Sequence record: PQ850631.1
Direction: 5' to 3' (one strand)
Origin: Escherichia phage VerenaGrendelmeier_Bas101
Length of the DNA stretch: 64,000 bases
The first letter of the stretch is position 1, and each line of letters starts with the position of its first letter. Shown one piece after another: positions 29,488 through 44,589 of the stretch. The notes under the pieces are model-generated. The model saw nothing but the letters and a program-made list of their open reading frames with translations. It had not been told where the DNA came from and searched no databases. Position numbers and translations under genes: made by a program.

Positions 29488-30465
29488 TTAAAAATACTCC
29501 ATATCGGTAATATCACGGAAGCATTTATACAAAGCAGAGCGCGGCACATCGACAATGCCAAAGTTAAAGAATTTATATGTAAGATACTTGTTGCGATAAT
29601 TCTCGCGATTCTCCCAAAGCATTTTTCTCTCTGCCATAGGCATTGAACCAGCGGAGACGCGGAAAGGAATCATTTCGCCTTTCTCATCAACATATTTTGG
29701 ATTGACGACTACGAATGAGCCAAGGTATCCTTTTGCGACTAATCCTTCAGCCTCTTTTGAACGCTTAGTGCGACCCAACTCATCAATGAATGCTTCGTTG
29801 TTGTTCTCCATCATCTCAACGAAGTCTATGATCAGTCCTTCTTCATCGGTCCACGGCTTGTCCTTCCACACATCACGTGACTTTGGCGTCGCGCGGCCAT
29901 GCTTGTATTTACCCGTCCAAGACTTGCCATACAAGCCTTCATAGCCAAGCTGGTCTGCTTCGATTTGCATTGCCGCGTACTGCTCCATATTTTCGATGTT
30001 GCGATATTCGAGAGCGCGAAGGAATGGGCGTCGACCATGGTTGATGAGGTGCTGATTGACTTCAGCAACTCTAGCGCGATAGTTTGCATAACGCTTTTCA
30101 AAAGGCAAATCAGGGTCGCTGAAATCATCAAACACCCACCATGTAAAGTTAGTGATTGCATCAGTATTCATGCATGCAGTATAGGCCTGTTGCATGACGT
30201 TCTTATCATTTGGATTGCCGTCGATTAGCTCTCCATCAAGTCCGTGAATTAATTCACCCAAGAAGAGGAACTCTTTTTTGATTTGAATGTTTCGCAGTGC
30301 CATGCCGGACGTGCCCATTGGCAAGTTGTCATACGCCATTGCGCGTATGCCATCGACCTTGAATGACAATCCGCAAGGCAGCGGCACGTCTTCGCCGCGC
30401 TCGATTATTTGCTTACGCTGGCAACCCTTCATTGGTTTTAATGCTTTGATTTCTCCTGCCATCAC
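29488..30465 (-). CDS. ATP-dependent DNA ligase
   Basis: 325 aa; nucleotidyltransferase motif I KVDGIRA. Confidence 0.65.
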   Translation of the reverse strand: MMAGEIKALKPMKGCQRKQIIERGEDVPLPCGLSFKVDGIRAMAYDNLPMGTSGMALRNIQIKKEFLFLGELIHGLDGELIDGNPNDKNVMQQAYTACMNTDAITNFTWWVFDDFSDPDLPFEKRYANYRARVAEVNQHLINHGRRPFLRALEYRNIENMEQYAAMQIEADQLGYEGLYGKSWTGKYKHGRATPKSRDVWKDKPWTDEEGLIIDFVEMMENNNEAFIDELGRTKRSKEAEGLVAKGYLGSFVVVNPKYVDEKGEMIPFRVSAGSMPMAERKMLWENRENYRNKYLTYKFFNFGIVDVPRSALYKCFRDITDMEYF

Positions 30466-31055
30466 TCAAACTCCTTATTCATCACTTGTTCCAGCGCATA
30501 GGCGTAAGCCTGATCAGTCGATTTGATGAATGTGCCGTTGTACATGACACCTTTTCGGTCTTTAATGTCTTCGTAGGCCGCTTGCGCACAGTCGGATAAG
30601 CGAAGGCCATAATCATGAGCTACGCCGGAAAGGTAATCGGATGCGGCCATGATGGTCACGTCAATATCCATGGTCTGATTCTTAGCGATTGCATCACCAA
30701 GTCGTCCAAGGGTCTTTGCCAGGCGAAGGATAAATGAATGAGGGTGAGCACCTTTATCAGCGCAACCGCCGCCATTAATGTTTTCGATTTCAGTACCGTT
30801 TTGCGCTGCCAGGATGGTCAACACAACAAGGCAATCGCCGATGTCGTCCTTAATTGCTGCCTGCAAGTCACAGATGGCTTGCTCTGTATATCCAATTTCA
30901 GGGTCGAAGAACACAAGGTCATGGAGTTGATCAACGTGGTCGGTTAACTCCCCGAACTCGCTGATAAGCTTCGGGTATTGGTCCTTAAGGTCGCAACCTT
31001 GGATGATGTTACGGTCAGAAGCCCACTGGCGAATGTTTGCATAAATCTGTTTCAT
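30462..31055 (-). CDS. MazG-like nucleoside triphosphate pyrophosphohydrolase
   Basis: 197 aa; ISEFGELTDHV and DDIGDCLVVLTILA resemble MazG-type motifs. Confidence 0.45.
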   Translation of the reverse strand: MKQIYANIRQWASDRNIIQGCDLKDQYPKLISEFGELTDHVDQLHDLVFFDPEIGYTEQAICDLQAAIKDDIGDCLVVLTILAAQNGTEIENINGGGCADKGAHPHSFILRLAKTLGRLGDAIAKNQTMDIDVTIMAASDYLSGVAHDYGLRLSDCAQAAYEDIKDRKGVMYNGTFIKSTDQAYAYALEQVMNKEFE

Positions 31056-38810: not shown

Positions 38811-38864
38811 ATTAGCCTCCTACAAAAAGGCCGCCCATTAGGACGGCCACATATTCACGATTTG

Positions 38865-39416
38865 TTATACAGTGTACGGAGTACCGTCTTGATTCAACCG
38901 CACGATGAACTTAAGGTCAACACCAATGATTTCACGCGTATCAAAGATCACATAGTTGTAACGACGCTGACCAGCAATGTTTGGGTTGGTGTGAGAGTCG
39001 GTCACAACTTCCTGTGCAACCTGAATGCCTTCTTCGCTAAAGAACTTACGCCATTCAGCAAGTTCAGCGGCAGTCACGTGCATGCCAAGGTGGCTGACCT
39101 GATTGTCATGCGCATCGATATATTCGATGTTTTCGTTAATCCAGTTGCAGCCCATTGTGTAGTCAAGGATTTCAAGCTCAAGAGGCTTACCAGCGCCGCC
39201 ATCAGTACCGTTGCCAGCCTGATAGTTGAAGCGCAAGTCAGCTTCATTGGTACAATCGTCGCGACGACCTTTAAAGTCATCAGCTTCAAATACGCGACCA
39301 GTAGCAACAACATGATCATGGAACCATTCTGTCAGGCCGATTTTAGCCAAGAAATCCTGTGCGCGCTGAGCATCTGGAATTGACAGGGCGATTTGTTCAA
39401 TTTTAAAATGTGGCAT
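38865..39416 (-). CDS. VOC/glyoxalase-like fold protein
   Basis: 183 aa; N-terminal FKIEQIALSIPDAQRAQDFLAKIGL pattern and HLGMHV. Confidence 0.35.
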   Translation of the reverse strand: MPHFKIEQIALSIPDAQRAQDFLAKIGLTEWFHDHVVATGRVFEADDFKGRRDDCTNEADLRFNYQAGNGTDGGAGKPLELEILDYTMGCNWINENIEYIDAHDNQVSHLGMHVTAAELAEWRKFFSEEGIQVAQEVVTDSHTNPNIAGQRRYNYVIFDTREIIGVDLKFIVRLNQDGTPYTV

Positions 39417-39512
39417 TTTGTTTCCTTAATTAAATATTATTGATTAATTACTGTGTTGTCTTCGTCCTGTTTCTTTTCAGGAGCGGGTGTGACAACTTCA
39501 AATGTTCGTGAT

Positions 39513-40196
39513 TTATTTACCGAATGGAATATCAGTACCAGACATAAAGCGCCATGCGCCCGTAATTAAGATATGGCGAATGAAGTCAGCAATTACTTGC
39601 GGCTCAGTCTCCAATCCGTTCATCAATGCCTTTTTCTGGTATTCAGCAGCATACTCAGGAGTCCAGCCGCGAGTCGCGCAAACAGCATCTTCAATCTGTT
39701 TGGACATGCCAGTACCACGTAGCTTGTTAGGACTAATAGAAAATACCGTGATCCCGTATTTAGGCGTAAGCTCGTGAGCCATCTGCTTGCTAATCATAAG
39801 CGCAGCGGCCTTGGAAGCATTATAACACAAGCTGGACGTCATAGGAATATGCGCAGCGTTGGAAACGATATTGATCACAAAACCTTTGTTGTCGATAAGA
39901 CTTTTCAGCGCGGCTTGAGTCGTGTTGACGAAAGAGAAGGCGTTGGTGTGCATAACGCGATTGAACTCTTCGTAGTTAACATCTTCAAACCAGTTGTTGG
40001 AGTTGACGCCAGCACAGTTGATCAAGCCTTCTACATCATATGGGCTTAAAATTTCTTTCATCTGTTTCGCGTCGCGGACGTCATATCCGTATGCTGAATC
40101 GATTCCAAGCACGTTATGACCGTAAGCGCCAAGGGTGTCAAAAATAGATTTACCAAGACCGGAATTGGAACCTGTTACAACAATTACTTTTTTCAT
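39513..40196 (-). CDS. short-chain dehydrogenase/reductase (SDR)
   Basis: 227 aa; Rossmann VIVVTGSNSGLGKS and catalytic YNASKAA. Confidence 0.7.
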   Translation of the reverse strand: MKKVIVVTGSNSGLGKSIFDTLGAYGHNVLGIDSAYGYDVRDAKQMKEILSPYDVEGLINCAGVNSNNWFEDVNYEEFNRVMHTNAFSFVNTTQAALKSLIDNKGFVINIVSNAAHIPMTSSLCYNASKAAALMISKQMAHELTPKYGITVFSISPNKLRGTGMSKQIEDAVCATRGWTPEYAAEYQKKALMNGLETEPQVIADFIRHILITGAWRFMSGTDIPFGK

Positions 40197-40261
40197 TTAT
40201 TTATCCTTTTTGGACTTCATTTCGATGAGATAAATATAACTCATCGAAACGCACAAGTAAA

Positions 40262-41134
40262 CTATTTATTGAAATTAATATTGTGGGTGTTGACGAGACG
40301 TTCACACATGGCGCTGTAAACACCATCATCGTGTATAGAGTCTTCGTGCTTCAGGCCGCTGATTGCAAAGCGTGTAAGCTTGACAATCTTAAGCTCGAAC
40401 AGATGCCACATGTGGTAGTCTTCCGGCGTTTTCAACGTTACGCCATTAGGGAAAAGCACCTGCATAACCTGGCCTACCATCACAGCGTTATCGCCATAGA
40501 CAGCGTTACGCTCACGGAAAGTCGCGGCCATCGCATCAAGAATATCGGCGGCGGTTGCCGGAGATTGTTTGATTTCCACTGCTTTAGTCTCTTCTTGCCC
40601 CGTTGCGCTTGGATCAACTGCTAATCGTTGCACTACTTCACCTGCCTTGCAAAGATTAAATGTAAAAGCGATTTTATTTTGAGCAACGGAATTATAATCC
40701 ATAGCTTCTTTACGCATCGCCGCGAGTACGTCTTGTCTGTCGTCAAACACATTAATGATTCGATAATCGCCGTGACGCAATGCGTAATATAGCCATTCAG
40801 ACTTCATAATAGTTGATGGACGTTTGTCGCCATAGTCTCTCATCTTGATTGTAAATTCATCAAAAGGGAAAACATTGTCCAGACGTTCAAAAGTCACTTG
40901 TCTGTATTTTTCTGGCCTTGCAGTCCAATATTCAACCGCCTCACCGCGAAGAGATGCCGACTCTACTGCTGATGCAATGTGAGGATAGAACTGATCATAA
41001 CCAATACCGCTGTAATAATCATCATAGTCTGACAACGGACCTGCCACCTTGATGCGGTCTAAGCGCCAACGGTCATCAAACAGCGTTCCGTCAAGGTCGA
41101 ATACGTTTAAAATTTCGCTGTTTTTAATGCTCAT
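40262..41134 (-). CDS. HAD-like phosphatase with C-terminal extension
   Basis: 290 aa; N-terminal motif FDLDGTLFDD and later VFDDRQD. Confidence 0.4.
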   Translation of the reverse strand: MSIKNSEILNVFDLDGTLFDDRWRLDRIKVAGPLSDYDDYYSGIGYDQFYPHIASAVESASLRGEAVEYWTARPEKYRQVTFERLDNVFPFDEFTIKMRDYGDKRPSTIMKSEWLYYALRHGDYRIINVFDDRQDVLAAMRKEAMDYNSVAQNKIAFTFNLCKAGEVVQRLAVDPSATGQEETKAVEIKQSPATAADILDAMAATFRERNAVYGDNAVMVGQVMQVLFPNGVTLKTPEDYHMWHLFELKIVKLTRFAISGLKHEDSIHDDGVYSAMCERLVNTHNINFNK

Positions 41135-41934
41135 CCTTTTGATACTCCATCTTTAGCAACTGGATTGTTGGTGATTGGCATCGCACTCCAAAACTGGATG
41201 CGTAACTCTTCTTGCTGTGCCGTGGTATCCATCCAATCACGATACCAAGGGCAATGGGCTTTGCCATGACGAGGAAACGCGCATTTACCCATACCGATGC
41301 ATTGCGGCTGTAATAATGGATTTGCCCACGGGTGCACCTTGAGGACTTCCGCAACCATTGCTCGGAATACTTCTTGATACTCGCCTTGTGTGCGCGTGCA
41401 CAAGCGGTTGGAAGCCATCTGTTGCAGCGTTCGCAAGTTGAACTTTGCCATGATATGCGTTTGCATATTAGAAGGCAACACGGCACGTGCATCTTGAATC
41501 TCTGCGCCAGCCGCGCGAAGCTCTTGATACAAAGCATCGATAGTCGCCATCGCATCATCCCACTTCTCTGCCAGTTCAGCGGCCTTCTCGTCATGACGAG
41601 TCCATCCCTTTGGATCATCCTCTGGGTAAGTAAACTTAGCAGGGCGAATCGCATCAAATGCAGACGACTCCTGAGCGCGGCTGGTGCGTTCTTGATATGC
41701 GCCTGTGCGTGTGCGCACCATCTGATGGGTCATATTCTTTGATACATCAGTGATGTCAAAGATATAGTCCACAAAGTCAAAAGGCGACTTGATTGTATCA
41801 AGCATGTAGCGCCAGTGCTCTTGCTTCTCTGATTCTGTCATCTCAGAGACTGGCTTACCAGTCATGCGCGTGTTCTTTGTTTCCAGCAAAAGGTCAAGTG
41901 CATCTTGGGTGTATCGAATTAATTCAACTTTCAT
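41131..41934 (-). CDS. ThyX-like flavin-dependent thymidylate synthase homolog (divergent)
   Basis: 267 aa; SKNMTHQMVRTRTGAYQERTSR aligns with the ThyX RHR...S signature region but has RTR in place of RHR. Confidence 0.5.
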   Translation of the reverse strand: MKVELIRYTQDALDLLLETKNTRMTGKPVSEMTESEKQEHWRYMLDTIKSPFDFVDYIFDITDVSKNMTHQMVRTRTGAYQERTSRAQESSAFDAIRPAKFTYPEDDPKGWTRHDEKAAELAEKWDDAMATIDALYQELRAAGAEIQDARAVLPSNMQTHIMAKFNLRTLQQMASNRLCTRTQGEYQEVFRAMVAEVLKVHPWANPLLQPQCIGMGKCAFPRHGKAHCPWYRDWMDTTAQQEELRIQFWSAMPITNNPVAKDGVSKG

Positions 41935-41947
41935 TTTAATTATCCTA

Positions 41948-42394
41948 TTAACGGTAATTCACTAGTTGCTGATCACCAGAGAAGGTGCAATGATAAACGA
42001 ATTGTGCGTTATAAAGCAACTGAAAACTTTTCTTTGGTTCATTATTAGAACTCATTGATGTAAAGATTTCTGCACCAGAACGGTTTTCACCAATCAGGTT
42101 AATAAAGCCGCCAGTTGAACGAGGCTGAACGAAAGTGAAACGCTGCATCCACGGAGTCCGGTTGGCACCTTTTCCGGTGAATCCCTGAATCTGAATATTC
42201 AGACCTTCTTGCTCGTTCACACCGATGTAAGTGGTAATTGTTGCGCCAGTCGTCGCTGCGGTCTTGCCGTCCATCGCTTCGCAATCGTAAACAGCGATTG
42301 AATCGGAAGTACGGACAGCGGCTTCAGTCGCTTCCATATACATGGTTCCGAGAATAGCAGTCGCGGCAAGCGCGATTCCAGTGATGCGTTTCAT
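41948..42394 (-). CDS. secreted protein
   Basis: 148 aa; signal-peptide-like N-terminus MKRITGIALAATAILG; AGAGGA RBS; own promoter. Confidence 0.45.
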   Translation of the reverse strand: MKRITGIALAATAILGTMYMEATEAAVRTSDSIAVYDCEAMDGKTAATTGATITTYIGVNEQEGLNIQIQGFTGKGANRTPWMQRFTFVQPRSTGGFINLIGENRSGAEIFTSMSSNNEPKKSFQLLYNAQFVYHCTFSGDQQLVNYR

Positions 42395-42414
42395 TTTCGT
42401 TTCCTCTATGAGTT

Positions 42415-42458
42415 CTGCTTCAATGATTAAAGTATACGCCCATTGAAGCAGAAAGCAA
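42415..42458 (-). promoter_or_regulatory. promoter (TTGCTT-16-TATACT) with flanking 11-bp inverted repeat (operator-like)
   Basis: minus-strand -35 at plus 42453-42458, -10 at plus 42431-42436; arms CTGCTTCAATG 42415-42425 and CATTGAAGCAG 42441-42451 bracket the -10. Confidence 0.5.
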
Positions 42459-42459
42459 A

Positions 42460-43455
42460 TTATTTATTAGCAATATAAGCAAATTTTTGATAGTTATTTG
42501 CTTTGATGAGTTTTTCAACTTCAGCAAGGTCATGAGCGACGTCATCAAGCAAAATGTTTCGCCAAGTAGCGAATCGACCGACACTGAATACGTTCAAATC
42601 CATAGTCAACTGGAGCAGTAAGGCGTGGCGCAAGTCTTTCGGAATGTCGACAATTTTGCCATACTTCTGGTCAACCTTTTCAACTTCTTCCAAAGAGATG
42701 TCATTCCATGAAAGACCAAAAGCGGTAAGAACTTCATCCACTTCTGCACGCAGCTTCATGTCGCGATAACGTGTAATGCCGCCAGCGGCTTCAACTGCTG
42801 CCGCGCTGACGCTTACCAATGGAATTGTTTCAATGATCAGCGTGTCACCAGTGATTGATGCGCGGTAAGTCCTTACAGAATAGTCAGGGAAGTAAATTGT
42901 TTGATACAACTCACACTTGCGCTTAATCTTAAAACGATAAACGCGAATATTTGCCTTATCAAACGAGAAGTCGAGCTTTTGATCAATACCAGCAAGCTTC
43001 ATCATGACTGGCAGCGGCGATGTGTTGATGATTGGCGTCTCGCTATAGCCGCAAAGCGTGTCGACCGGAGTATTAAAGAATATACGGTCACCCAGTTTAT
43101 CGACAAGTTGATCATAAAAGTCATCCGGCGCTATGTAGCGCGTAGCAGTTTGAAGCTTCATGATTGAGCGGCTGCCAAACTGGTTGGTGACTTTCATAGA
43201 GTACATATTGGCAAGGTTGATTGGGCAATGGTCGTGATAGTAGTTACCGCGAAAATACACGGCCTTGTCAACTGTCACTGCCTTAAAAGGGATTCCGGTA
43301 ATACGGCTTACTTCTTCGCCGCGAAAGCGTAGCAGCGCCTTGTGCTGTGGCGCTCGCTCCCCTGCTTCGTACACAATAGAGTTCGGGAAGTGACACGCGG
43401 TAATAAGTCCTGCCAAACCGCCGCCGATAATCATTACAGGTTGTTTCATGTTCAT
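42460..43455 (-). CDS. FAD-dependent oxidoreductase
   Basis: 331 aa; N-terminal dinucleotide-binding VMIIGGGLAGL. Confidence 0.55.
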   Translation of the reverse strand: MNMKQPVMIIGGGLAGLITACHFPNSIVYEAGERAPQHKALLRFRGEEVSRITGIPFKAVTVDKAVYFRGNYYHDHCPINLANMYSMKVTNQFGSRSIMKLQTATRYIAPDDFYDQLVDKLGDRIFFNTPVDTLCGYSETPIINTSPLPVMMKLAGIDQKLDFSFDKANIRVYRFKIKRKCELYQTIYFPDYSVRTYRASITGDTLIIETIPLVSVSAAAVEAAGGITRYRDMKLRAEVDEVLTAFGLSWNDISLEEVEKVDQKYGKIVDIPKDLRHALLLQLTMDLNVFSVGRFATWRNILLDDVAHDLAEVEKLIKANNYQKFAYIANK

Positions 43456-43479: not shown

Positions 43480-43508
43480 AGTATAATAGCTAAATTATTT
43501 TACAGCAA
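43480..43508 (-). promoter_or_regulatory. sigma70-like promoter (TTGCTG-17-TATACT) for FAD oxidoreductase operon
   Basis: minus-strand -35 at plus 43503-43508, -10 at plus 43480-43485; AAAGGA RBS downstream. Confidence 0.45.
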
Positions 43509-43534: not shown

Positions 43535-43562
43535 AAAAAAAGACCCACAACAAGTGTGGGTC
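43535..43562 (-). terminator. rho-independent terminator after Lys/Ala/Glu-rich protein gene
   Basis: GACCCACA / TGTGGGTC 8-bp stem, 5-nt loop, then 7-nt U-run on minus strand. Confidence 0.6.
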
Positions 43563-43590: not shown

Positions 43591-44430
43591 TTATTCCGCT
43601 TGATCACCGTCTTCAGCATCGTCGTTGGATTCAACATCGACAAACTCGATGTGGCCCATCTCTTCCAGCTTGCTCAGGTAGGAGCGAACGGAAGCGCCAA
43701 ACAGTTGATCTTTAACTTTCTCGCCCAGCTCATCGATAGACTGTGCCACGCCAACTTCGCCTTCTTTGATCGCAGCCAGAACGCGTCCACGGGTGGAATG
43801 CTCTTGCGGCTGGCTCAGGCCATTACCAGTGTAGATGAAGTGAGTAGCTTTTGCACGACGCTGACCGTTTGCCTTTTTAGCAGCCTTACGTTCTGCGATG
43901 GCTTTGCGACGTTCTTCAGCTTCTTTCTTACGCTGTTCTTTCTGCTGTTCTGCAGCTTCTTTCGCCGCAATCTTAGCAGCTTCACGCTCTGCCTTGCGTT
44001 TCGCTTTAGCTTCTTCTTTGGCCTTCTCTTTTTCGGCCTTCGCTGCAGCACGGGCTTGATCACGCTCTGCTTTCTTAGCAGCAGCTTGTTCAGCTTTCAG
44101 GCGCTTGGCTTCTTCTTTAGCCTTTGCCTTTTCGATTTCTTTCGCTGCTTTAGCGGCTTCACGCTCTGCTTTCTTAGCAGCGGCCTTTTCTGCACGCTCT
44201 TTAGCTTTCTTGGCTGCTTCTTCAGCACGCTTCTGAGCCTTCTCATCAGCAGCCTGCTTGCGTTTCAGCGCAGCTTCTTCACGCTTGGCTTGTTTTTCCT
44301 GCTCACGCTTCTGGCGTTTTTCTTCGGCTTCTTTCTTTTTAGCCAGGCGTTTTTCTTCAGCCACGCGACGACGTTCTGCTGCAGCTGCTTGTTTTTCTTC
44401 TTTAGATAATACTTTGATTGCTTCGGCCAT
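43591..44430 (-). CDS. Lys/Ala/Glu-rich low-complexity protein with globular C-terminal domain
   Basis: about 200 aa of KAEE/AKKA-type charged repeats, then non-repetitive acidic C-terminus; ATG 44430 behind AAGGA. Confidence 0.5.
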   Translation of the reverse strand: MAEAIKVLSKEEKQAAAAERRRVAEEKRLAKKKEAEEKRQKREQEKQAKREEAALKRKQAADEKAQKRAEEAAKKAKERAEKAAAKKAEREAAKAAKEIEKAKAKEEAKRLKAEQAAAKKAERDQARAAAKAEKEKAKEEAKAKRKAEREAAKIAAKEAAEQQKEQRKKEAEERRKAIAERKAAKKANGQRRAKATHFIYTGNGLSQPQEHSTRGRVLAAIKEGEVGVAQSIDELGEKVKDQLFGASVRSYLSKLEEMGHIEFVDVESNDDAEDGDQAE

Positions 44431-44589
44431 GTTCACAGTCCTTAAATAAATTAGTTTATTTTATATTCCCCGTTTGGGATAACTTAATTATGCCTTCAGT
44501 CGCCGCCAGTAGCAACTAAAAACTATGGCGGCGATGCCACTTTAATTAAACTGATTTTCAGTTTTATTTTTCGTAAATTTACGTCAACA

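Follow-up and report, generated by a model that had tools for sequence, protein, structure and literature searches.

A virus-specific flavoenzyme module beside the polymerase gene of Wifcevirus phages: a candidate system for thymine hypermodification

Introduction

What could a block of small-molecule or nucleotide enzymes do in a phage genome, right beside the gene of the DNA polymerase? The question is raised by a stretch of 64,000 nucleotides from Escherichia phage VerenaGrendelmeier_Bas101 (record PQ850631.1; the whole stretch is called the window here), in which six consecutive minus-strand genes (the island, positions 38865-43455) encode a FAD-type flavoprotein, a putative secreted protein, a ThyX-like flavoenzyme, a protein with a HAD phosphatase domain, a short-chain dehydrogenase/reductase (SDR) and a VOC-like protein. 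A first reading of the sequence (the original prediction) had proposed that the ThyX-like enzyme, the second flavoprotein, the reductase and the phosphatase could form a pathway for a non-canonical nucleotide or DNA modification of the kind by which phages evade restriction. All six open reading frames (ORFs) were recovered where that reading had placed them. The proposed pathway itself is supported by co-inheritance of the genes, by a ThyX-like protein that departs from the canonical enzyme, by the chemistry measured in Pbunavirus phages, by restriction resistance and by a signature of TG dinucleotides in restriction-site palindromes; it has to do without the secreted protein. On balance, we consider it rather probable that the other five genes form a module that makes a sugar-type hypermodification of thymine in phage DNA and thereby protects it from restriction enzymes.

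Over the 4.8-kb island region, the window shares 93-95% identity with 28 Wifcevirus genomes (E. coli/Shigella myoviruses), including WFC, WFH, ECML-117, FEC19, EC150 and BASEL Bas98-100 among others, and it belongs to this genus of E. coli myoviruses. According to the BASEL paper, Wifcevirus is a distant relative of Pbunavirus, and its members are strictly lytic, very fast, dependent on the O16 O-antigen and restriction-resistant, being insensitive in vivo to EcoRI and EcoRV and very sensitive to EcoP1_I. In Pbunavirus, liquid chromatography-mass spectrometry has revealed a sugar-type hypermodified thymidine: new nucleosides of 362 and 390 Da were found in phages F8 and 14-1, where they replace about a quarter of the thymidines, at TG sites, while the remaining residues are plain T (PMC12191111). 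F8 virion DNA resists five enzymes with TG in their site and is cut by five enzymes without it (Yee et al. 2025, PMC12191111). The biosynthetic genes were not named in that work, and gene-based prediction misses the Pbunavirus family (PMC12191111).

Results

Five island genes are inherited together in viral genomes

With a profile of the flavoprotein, 80 IMG/VR loci were found and probed with the window proteins; 57 of them hold the whole span. The order flavoprotein, ThyX-like protein, HAD domain, DUF6378, SDR, VOC, exonuclease and PolIII-alpha is colinear in 57/57 complete loci. The flavoprotein, the ThyX-like protein and DUF6378 (the C-terminal domain of the HAD protein in the window) are never missing, the last two being present in 57/57; the N-terminal HAD domain is found in 50 and missing in 7. 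SDR and VOC are both present in 41 complete loci and both absent in 15, and the idea that they are Wifcevirus-specific additions was dismissed on the former count.

The same genes recur in phages of very different hosts. A tblastn search with the flavoprotein returned 361 phage records, 292 of them from Pseudomonas phages (mostly Pbunavirus) and others from phages of Serratia, Xanthomonas, Pantoea, Rhizobium, Cronobacter and Vibrio. At a coverage of at least 80%, the flavoprotein was found in 358 and the ThyX-like clade in 356 of 50,697 phage records. The genes also cluster beside the exonuclease and PolIII-alpha in three Pbunavirus genomes (LMA2, F8 and 14-1), in podophage Ss1 of Cronobacter and in a Rhizobium phage of 206 kb. 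Among single genomes of 185,579 prokaryotic species, no clear cellular homologue was detected: the six flavoprotein matches all lie on phage-looking contigs (short or 40-60 kb) of metagenome-assembled genomes, and they keep the gene order at 29-41% flavoprotein identity. In contigs binned with Elusimicrobiota, Desulfocapsa, Bacilli and Dehalococcoidia, this identity is 29-37%. The module amounts to about 1,900 protein clusters. Judged from these sequence comparisons, five of the six island genes are a conserved, co-inherited and virus-specific module.

More distant versions may exist in actinophages. In the Microbacterium phage Cybele (locus L105, 37193-39986), the N-terminus of an 'oxidoreductase' matches the flavoprotein profile (hhalign probability 92%), and its gene overlaps that of a ThyX-like protein which likewise lacks His53 and Tyr91 (see below). 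The Gordonia phage Yikes (locus L106, 48310-58506) encodes a MazG-like protein and an SDR (gp77) whose identity to the SDR of the window is 30% (E 3e-28). The announcement of phage Xenia2 lists for clusters D, DV and EF an oxidoreductase, a phosphatase, a FabG-like reductase, a MazG-like, a ThyX-like and a DnaE-like polymerase protein (PMC11385102). We observed that this actinophage ensemble around the DnaE-like polymerase has the same makeup as the window at very low identity, with a possible DUF6378-like ORF. In some metagenomic loci, the module also contains extra ORFs that, judged by eye, resemble a pyrimidine-dimer glycosylase of T4 endonuclease V type, an NrdR-like regulator, a small MazG-like pyrophosphatase and an S-adenosylmethionine methyltransferase (L041:8493-8948, L069:5324-5818, L013:12723-13013 and L087:8826-9326).

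The ThyX-like protein keeps the dUMP pocket without the canonical catalytic residues

The original prediction had recognised a flavin-dependent thymidylate-synthase-like enzyme. The Thy1 fold and the dUMP pocket bear this out; the canonical catalytic residues are gone. Indeed, the protein matches Pfam Thy1 (PF02511) with 107.1 bits (E 1.2e-30), while its score against the thyX equivalog of NCBIfam (TIGR02170) is 83.1 bits, under the cut-off of 87.9. Its alignment to Thermotoga maritima ThyX is gapless across the motifs, and residue numbers below are those of T. maritima. The dUMP-binding residues Q75, R78, R80, R90, R147, R165 and R174 are intact in the window protein and in 64/64 non-identical flavoprotein-linked homologues that were aligned. 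In the same 64/64 homologues, His53 is replaced by Ile (as in the window), Tyr91 by Ala, Val or Thr (Ala in the window), His59 by Phe and His178 by Arg (the last two also in the window). His79 has become Thr, Ser or Asn (Thr in the window), and Ser88 is mostly Thr. The ThyX motif RHRxxS...SxR is consequently broken and reads RTRTGAYQERTSRA in the window (H79 to T, S83 to A, S88 to T, Y91 to A).

Tyr91 and Ser88 have been described as strictly conserved and critical in ThyX, mutation of Y91 makes flavin oxidation 1000-fold slower, and both the pterin of folate and the reduced flavin are stacked upon by His53 (PMC11940539, a structural paper from 2025). A canonical phage ThyX, that of Clostridium phage phiCP26F, keeps His53, Tyr91 and the other residues in question. 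The loss of His53 and Tyr91, together with the TIGR02170 score under cut-off, sets the protein apart from canonical thymidylate synthase. As far as the sequence tells, it belongs to the Thy1 fold family yet fails the tests of a canonical dTMP synthase, and the profile search does not place it among ordinary dTMP-synthesis families, a match that the original prediction had named as evidence against a modification pathway. Public records all label it thymidylate synthase.

About half of the clade, including Wifcevirus and Pbunavirus, carries in addition a four-cysteine motif (R-L-C ... C-x5-C-AFPR-x-G ... C), which is built by the core Cys176 and a C-terminal extension (41131-41322, residues ~205-267). 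It is conceivable that this motif could bind a metal or an Fe-S cluster near the active-site residues Arg174/Arg178.

The second flavoprotein resembles UDP-galactopyranose mutase at the level of the fold

Fold comparison of the flavoprotein revealed a FAD-binding Rossmann domain with GxGxxG motif and the overall fold of UDP-galactopyranose mutase (UGM). UGM is its nearest fold, and the record of phage Mansfield annotates it as such; the identity is 10-17%, so that the likeness holds at fold level only, and PPOX/amine oxidases score close behind. No Pfam family, including GLF, was matched even at E <= 10, and phmmer searches of the PDB with the single sequence and with a profile retrieved only the dinucleotide-binding GxGxxG motif of amine oxidases. 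The modelled fold is therefore best described as a UGM/PPOX-like FAD fold, and the protein is not a UGM at the level of sequence families.

The module is syntenic with a replication-region block of Pbunavirus

F8 has homologues of the core genes, and both their order and their neighbours (exonuclease/PolIII-alpha) are those of the window: gp65 for the flavoprotein (41% identity), gp59 for the ThyX-like protein (49%) and gp57 for HAD-DUF6378 (26-48%). F8 lacks the SDR and VOC genes. Besides replication proteins, a Pfam scan of F8 disclosed no recognisable enzyme except the module, a ligase and a MazG-like protein. A search for a glycosyltransferase, kinase or aminotransferase in the window, in F8 and in the gaps of the 80 loci found none; only morons, helix-turn-helix proteins and occasional repair-type ORFs turned up. 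In the window, ten other ORFs (130-290 residues) gave no enzyme family in Pfam or PHROG, the ~60 small ORFs having been covered in part. Because of the synteny and this elimination of other enzymes, the module is the prime candidate for the Pbunavirus modification. In F8, 27% of T lies in TG, which agrees with the published quarter of modified thymidines. Since SDR and VOC are absent from Pbunavirus, any adduct that Wifcevirus may carry probably differs from those of Pbunavirus. The literature on Wifceviruses (WFC/WFH, vB_Eco4M-7 and BASEL) yielded no restriction-digest or modification data.

Palindromes containing TG/CA escape counter-selection

If thymines in TG context are protected, no counter-selection would be expected for restriction sites with TG/CA in them. 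All 64 six-base palindromes were scored against a maximal-order Markov expectation, and the TG/CA effect was estimated by a GC-adjusted regression. In the window, the 16 TG/CA palindromes are near expectation (mean z -0.27, median observed/expected ratio 0.97), while the 48 others are depleted (mean z -2.11, median ratio 0.73), and the 15 most avoided palindromes are all TG-free. A comparable TG effect is found in F8 and not in four control phages (Table 1). In metagenomic loci, which are not phylogenetically independent, TG palindromes exceed the others in 19 of 19 five-gene loci and in 8 of 11 three-gene loci.

Table 1. Effect of TG/CA on the abundance of six-base palindromes (O/E, observed/expected)
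Genome	TG coefficient	p	Pooled O/E, TG	Pooled O/E, non-TG
Window (Wifcevirus)	+1.84	0.015	0.98	0.75
F8 (Pbunavirus)	+1.65	0.042	0.96	0.73
T1 (control)	-0.22	> 0.7	0.67	0.73
T7 (control)	+0.03	> 0.7	0.60	0.58
lambda (control)	+0.17	> 0.7	0.72	0.62
LUZ19 (control)	+0.25	> 0.7	0.59	0.41

Some individual sites are strikingly rare in the window. There are no BsaI, KpnI, BamHI or XbaI sites (16, 9, 8 and 4.5 expected), TCCGGA, AGCGCT, CCGCGG and CGGCCG are absent (14-22 expected), and GATC occurs 103 times against ~284 expected.

A PNKP-type phosphatase domain is joined to the conserved DUF6378

The phosphatase named in the original prediction is a HAD domain of PNKP type, as supported by the HAD_PNKP profile (39.5 bits), a DxDxT nucleophile motif and a core fold closest to Pnkp phosphatases, with Pnkp1 and the 3'-phosphatase of T4 Pnkp as best structural matches. 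The protein falls in phrog_4889, and PHROG and RefSeq label it 'polynucleotide kinase/phosphorylase'. Its C-terminal half has no P-loop and thus no associated 5'-kinase domain. In this half, Pfam at E <= 10 found nothing for the window's own sequence; DUF6378 surfaced through 18 homologues of the domain, 17 of which match it. DUF6378 is a stand-alone gene of ~100 residues in many related phages and is better conserved than any other part of the module: its identity reaches 69% where that of the flavoprotein is 44%. From its conservation, DUF6378 appears to be essential to the module. A role as MazG/DUF1599-like pyrophosphatase was considered for DUF6378 and found unsupported (hhalign probability against the phage's own MazG-like protein, 0.8%).

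SDR and VOC are possible tailoring enzymes, and the secreted protein is an insert

The predicted reductase is a classical SDR, with an adh_short domain (109 bits) and both the cofactor motif VTGSNSGLG (TGxxxGxG) and the catalytic motif YNASK (YxxxK). It reaches none of the NCBIfam equivalogs (best score 81.5 bits, cut-off 215). The VOC assignment is weaker: Glyoxalase_4 scores 17.8 bits, under the cut-off of 27, and the Mansfield record cites InterPro IPR029068. Searches of the PDB with the single VOC sequence and with a profile gave no match. Residues Q8, E82, H109 and D167 are invariant in 33 homologues, in the placement expected for metal ligands as judged by eye. The gap between the VOC and SDR genes (39417-39512) measures 96 bp in the window; in Mansfield and Bas98 it holds one or two small ORFs (55-71 residues).

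The secreted protein of 148 residues matches no Pfam (E <= 10) or PHROG family and was found in four Wifcevirus loci only among the 80 loci. Unrelated ORFs with a signal peptide or lipoprotein signature occupy the slot between the flavoprotein and ThyX-like genes, or nearby gaps, in other phages (L013:10966-11893, L027:3340-3753, L039:4248-4529). Within the module, morons seem to have this slot as an insertion hot spot, and the secreted protein is a lineage-specific insert that is no part of the pathway.

The island is delimited by two terminators inside the replication module

Gene order in annotated relatives places the island inside the replication module (coordinates in Table 2). On its upstream side are the genes of a Dda-like helicase and of a KAE-rich protein; on its downstream side are those of a DEDDh exonuclease, of PolIII-alpha and two helicases, of a MazG-like protein and of an ATP-dependent DNA ligase (about 29.5-30.5 kb). 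Both terminators are annotated in Mansfield, and the one following the KAE-rich gene is invariant in seven Wifceviruses; its position there would shield the island from transcripts that start upstream. There is a 4-nt overlap between the ThyX-like and HAD genes, and the island is, from its sequence signals, probably one transcription unit between two strong terminators.

The island's own promoter, claimed by the original prediction, is a partial case. The motif can be read in the sequence, and the intergenic stretch that contains it is fully invariant across seven Wifceviruses; its -35 hexamer matches at only 3/6 positions, which leaves it under the threshold of the promoter scanner. The scanner's own call is an overlapping 9/12 match at 43521-43494.

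Wifcevirus, Pbunavirus (gp49 of F8) and the actinophage ensembles all have the MazG-like protein that lies outside the island in the window, and this pyrophosphatase may be an accessory that controls the dNTP pool along with the module. As for the KAE-rich protein (43591-44436), it has 281 residues with an extreme content of Lys, Ala and Glu ('TolA-like', phrog_4765); its homologue at the same position in Pbunavirus, gp66, is annotated as a putative structural protein.

Table 2. Features of the island and related elements in the window
Feature	Position	Strand	Remarks
Intrinsic terminator	43542..43562	-	8-bp stem, 5 GC pairs, T-run; at 3' end of upstream KAE-rich gene
Candidate sigma-70 promoter of the island	43480..43508	-	TTGCTG-N17-TATACT, read in the sequence
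FAD-type flavoprotein, 331 aa, UGM/PPOX-like fold	42460..43455	-	phrog_4828 (unknown function); core member
Secreted protein, 148 aa, signal-like N-terminus	41948..42394	-	Lineage-specific insert (moron)
ThyX-like flavoenzyme, 267 aa, Cys-rich C-terminal extension	41131..41934	-	Thy1 107 bits; core member
HAD phosphatase domain, PNKP type, N-terminal in 290-aa protein	40613..41134	-	HAD_PNKP 39.5 bits
DUF6378 domain, four-helix, C-terminal in 290-aa HAD protein	40262..40612	-	Core member
Classical SDR, 227 aa	39513..40196	-	adh_short 109 bits; optional tailoring member
VOC-like protein (glyoxalase/epimerase fold), 183 aa	38865..39416	-	Glyoxalase_4 17.8 bits; optional tailoring member
Intrinsic terminator closing the island	38829..38848	-	8-bp stem, 7 GC pairs, T-run; precedes exonuclease/PolIII-alpha
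MazG-like pyrophosphatase, outside the island	30462..31055	-	phrog_1992, E 5.8e-62

Discussion

The module is best read as a relative of the thymidine hypermodification system of Pbunavirus that differs from it by the SDR/VOC pair, with a realistic chance of new enzymology. In the mechanism that we propose, the ThyX-like and UGM/PPOX-like flavoenzymes would create or trap a reactive C5-exocyclic-methylene or flavin-iminium species, which would be coupled to a sugar or sugar phosphate. Catalysis through flavin N5 as covalent catalyst is common to ThyX, TrmFO/MnmEG and UGM. Nucleophiles can intercept the exocyclic methylene that arises on ThyX or MnmEG (Lee et al. 2021, PMC8989533). A dUMP pocket that is kept, a folate-stacking His and a general-acid Tyr that are lost and a constant UGM/PPOX-like partner are what would be expected for the attachment of a group other than a methylene from folate. 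The PNKP-type HAD domain may then strip the phosphate off a nucleic-acid-borne sugar phosphate, a step proposed because its closest structural relatives remove phosphomonoesters from nucleic acid. The SDR/VOC pair could finally oxidise or reduce and isomerise or epimerise the sugar moiety, which would give Wifcevirus a variant adduct. The masses reported for Pbunavirus can be written as dU + pentose + 2H - H2O = 362.3 and dU + hexose - H2O = 390.3, or in the equivalent forms dT + tetrose = 362.3 and dT + pentose - 2H = 390.3. A C- or O-linked sugar that is introduced via a sugar phosphate and then dephosphorylated is thus chemically coherent. Action of the module on polymer DNA is favoured, because the TG pattern of Pbunavirus is sequence-specific and the phosphatase is Pnkp-like. 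A bolder version, in which the ThyX-derived enzyme has given up methylene transfer from folate and, with the flavoprotein, joins a whole sugar or sugar phosphate to C5 or the C5-methyl carbon by a C-C or ether bond through flavin-N5 chemistry only, possibly at TG sites of the polymer, with HAD dephosphorylating and SDR/VOC tailoring the sugar, agrees with the published masses but is speculative and rather unlikely.

Could the module rather serve ordinary nucleotide supply? A divergent dTMP synthase would then sustain fast replication, helped by the flavoprotein (e.g. as a flavin/NAD(P)H oxidoreductase replacing a lost NADPH site), with HAD as nucleotidase or DNA-end phosphatase and SDR/VOC as auxiliary metabolic enzymes, and restriction resistance would come from elsewhere. 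The Thy1 score of 107 bits, the intact dUMP-binding arginines, the location in the replication module and the thymidylate synthase annotation speak for this explanation; so do the strong avoidance of many sites, which shows that the phage relies on site loss too, and the insensitivity to EcoRI and EcoRV that a TG modification leaves over. We nevertheless consider it unlikely: Tyr91 and His53 are absent in all 64 homologues and TIGR02170 stays under its cut-off, E. coli and P. aeruginosa both possess ThyA already, and the UGM/PPOX fold is not among the known flavin-reductase folds. Moreover, unrelated housekeeping functions would hardly keep five enzymes so strictly together across very large distances, and thymine is modified in Pbunavirus, where no other candidate enzymes were found. 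A route at the level of the nucleotide pool, to which we would give a similarly low credence, shares with the preferred explanation the sugar-modified base and differs in its substrate: the ThyX-like enzyme would alkylate dUMP with a sugar-derived flavin iminium instead of methylene-folate, HAD would trim its sugar phosphate, host kinases would convert the product to the triphosphate and PolIII-alpha/epsilon would incorporate it, the TG bias arising from polymerase or proofreading context. Such a route would suit a family that works on mononucleotides and whose phosphate- and uracil-binding residues are all intact here, the loss of His53 is consistent with a different carbon donor, the module always adjoins its own polymerase and exonuclease, and the conserved MazG-like pyrophosphatase could clear competing dNTPs; the two masses equal dU + pentose (reductive, 362) and dU + hexose (redox-neutral, 390). 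It is at odds with the complete resistance at five TG-site enzymes and the cleavage by five TG-free ones (Yee et al., PMC12191111), and with a modified fraction equal to the TG fraction of T, a pattern that random incorporation would not yield. The HAD domain also resembles polynucleotide phosphatases rather than nucleotidases, and none of the window ORFs tested was recognised as a nucleotide kinase that could take a bulky analogue of dUMP.

Two further explanations take a single protein as their starting point. Repair of DNA or RNA ends under stress, in which the PNKP-like phosphatase and the phage ligase would heal 3'-phosphate ends left by host nucleases while the other proteins are passengers, is suggested by the best matches of HAD (Pnkp1/T4 Pnkp), by its PHROG/RefSeq label and by the ATP-dependent DNA ligase encoded nearby. 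It is improbable, since the kinase domain is absent and replaced in the C-terminal half by DUF6378, the HAD domain is dispensable in 7/57 loci, and the flavoenzymes and the SDR/VOC pairing are left without explanation. Remodelling of host glycans would turn a UGM-like mutase, a reductase, a phosphatase and an isomerase against the nucleotide-sugar pool or the lipopolysaccharide/O-antigen, e.g. for superinfection exclusion. UGM is the nearest fold and the Mansfield annotation, Wifceviruses depend on the O16 O-antigen, and this antigen contains galactofuranose. Against this, the module is conserved across very different hosts and receptors (Pseudomonas, Xanthomonas, Rhizobium, contigs binned as Bacilli and Elusimicrobiota), it is always located between ThyX-like and polymerase genes, the identity to UGM is 10-17% with no GLF/Pfam match, no glycosyltransferase was found, and Wifceviruses are strictly lytic and very fast; we regard this last explanation as hardly credible.

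Several points weigh against the hypermodification of thymine that we prefer. A modification of Wifcevirus DNA is extrapolated by analogy from a relative with 41-62% protein identity, and the module genes are themselves tied to the Pbunavirus modification by analogy, while the true enzymes could be among the many phage ORFs that have no assigned function. Gene order beside the polymerase could partly mean a conserved replication module instead of a pathway. The ThyX family consists of mononucleotide enzymes, which is a poor fit with a sequence-specific TG pattern, and the UGM likeness of the flavoprotein is confined to the fold, with PPOX/amine oxidases nearly as close. The palindromes give no more than a modest signal (p 0.015 and 0.042, with four controls), and the metagenomic loci that agree with it are not independent. 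The window contains 14 GAATTC (EcoRI), 6 GATATC (EcoRV) and 86 AGACC (EcoP1_I) sites, none with TG/CA, so a TG-only modification cannot explain the in vivo insensitivity to EcoRI and EcoRV. Finally, the adducts of F8 and 14-1 differ although their flavoproteins are 97% and their ThyX-like proteins 94% identical. HAD-DUF6378 is 80% identical between the two phages (L007:5772-6836 versus L008:5940-6956), the differences being mostly in an acidic AEDA-repeat linker, and comparison of the module proteins was uninformative as to the determinant of the two adducts.

The DNA hypermodification of Pbunavirus was found only in 2025, and the genes nominated here for Pbunavirus and Wifcevirus encode the flavoprotein, the ThyX-like protein and HAD-DUF6378, a set that may or may not include SDR/VOC. 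The label 'thymidylate synthase' on the ThyX-like protein is probably a misannotation in hundreds of genomes. If confirmed, the proposed function would bring new enzymology, a flavin-based attachment of sugar to thymine, and would explain host-range limits set by modification-dependent nucleases (e.g. END nucleases). It would also provide a sequence marker that predicts hypermodified phage genomes, useful for sequencing, cloning and therapy design. Should the flavin-only route be true, it would represent, together with the actinophage ensemble, a widespread and ancient phage DNA-modification system.

How does the module compare with known systems? With canonical ThyX (flavin-dependent thymidylate synthase; T. 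maritima TM0449 etc.), the ThyX-like protein shares the Thy1 fold and the complete set of residues binding the dUMP phosphate and uracil. It differs by the absence of His53, Tyr91 (the proposed general acid), His79, His59 and His178, and its clade adds a C-terminal extension and always pairs with a second flavoprotein. The HAD domain differs from T4 Pnkp and Pnkp1 in that it has no kinase, is fused to or adjoins DUF6378, and sits in a flavoenzyme module and not in an RNA-repair operon. With Pbunavirus (F8, 14-1), the window has in common a syntenic replication region, a relaxed avoidance of TG/CA palindromes and restriction resistance. EcoRI cuts F8 DNA, while in vivo insensitivity to this enzyme is reported for Wifceviruses, and the chemistry was measured in Pbunavirus, whereas it is predicted in Wifcevirus.

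Among hypermodification systems, the 5-hydroxymethyldeoxyuridine (5-hmdU) pathways of phages M6, ViI, SP10 and PhiW-14 (Lee et al. 2018; 2021, PMC8989533) block restriction by bulky C5 groups on part of the thymidines, made through an electrophilic intermediate of exocyclic-methylene type and finished by tailoring enzymes, as is proposed for the module. They use a ThyA-family dUMP hydroxymethylase, full replacement of T by 5-hmdU, a P-loop 5-hmdU DNA kinase and pyridoxal-phosphate (PLP) or radical-SAM enzymes. No ThyA-family hydroxymethylase, P-loop 5-hmdU kinase or PLP/radical-SAM enzyme was found in the island or in the ten other window ORFs of 130-290 residues, the small ORFs having been scanned in part; the candidates here are instead two flavoenzymes, a HAD phosphatase and DUF6378. 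By analogy, the nearest precedent for a flavin-based elaboration of C5 at the polymer level would be TrmFO/MnmEG. These FAD enzymes modify pyrimidine C5 in a polymer via a flavin iminium, and the intermediate of MnmEG is captured by glycine. They differ from the module in acting on RNA uracil with methylene-folate, in having no sequence relationship detected here and, for MnmEG, in relying on a GTPase, of which no MnmE-like counterpart accompanies the module.

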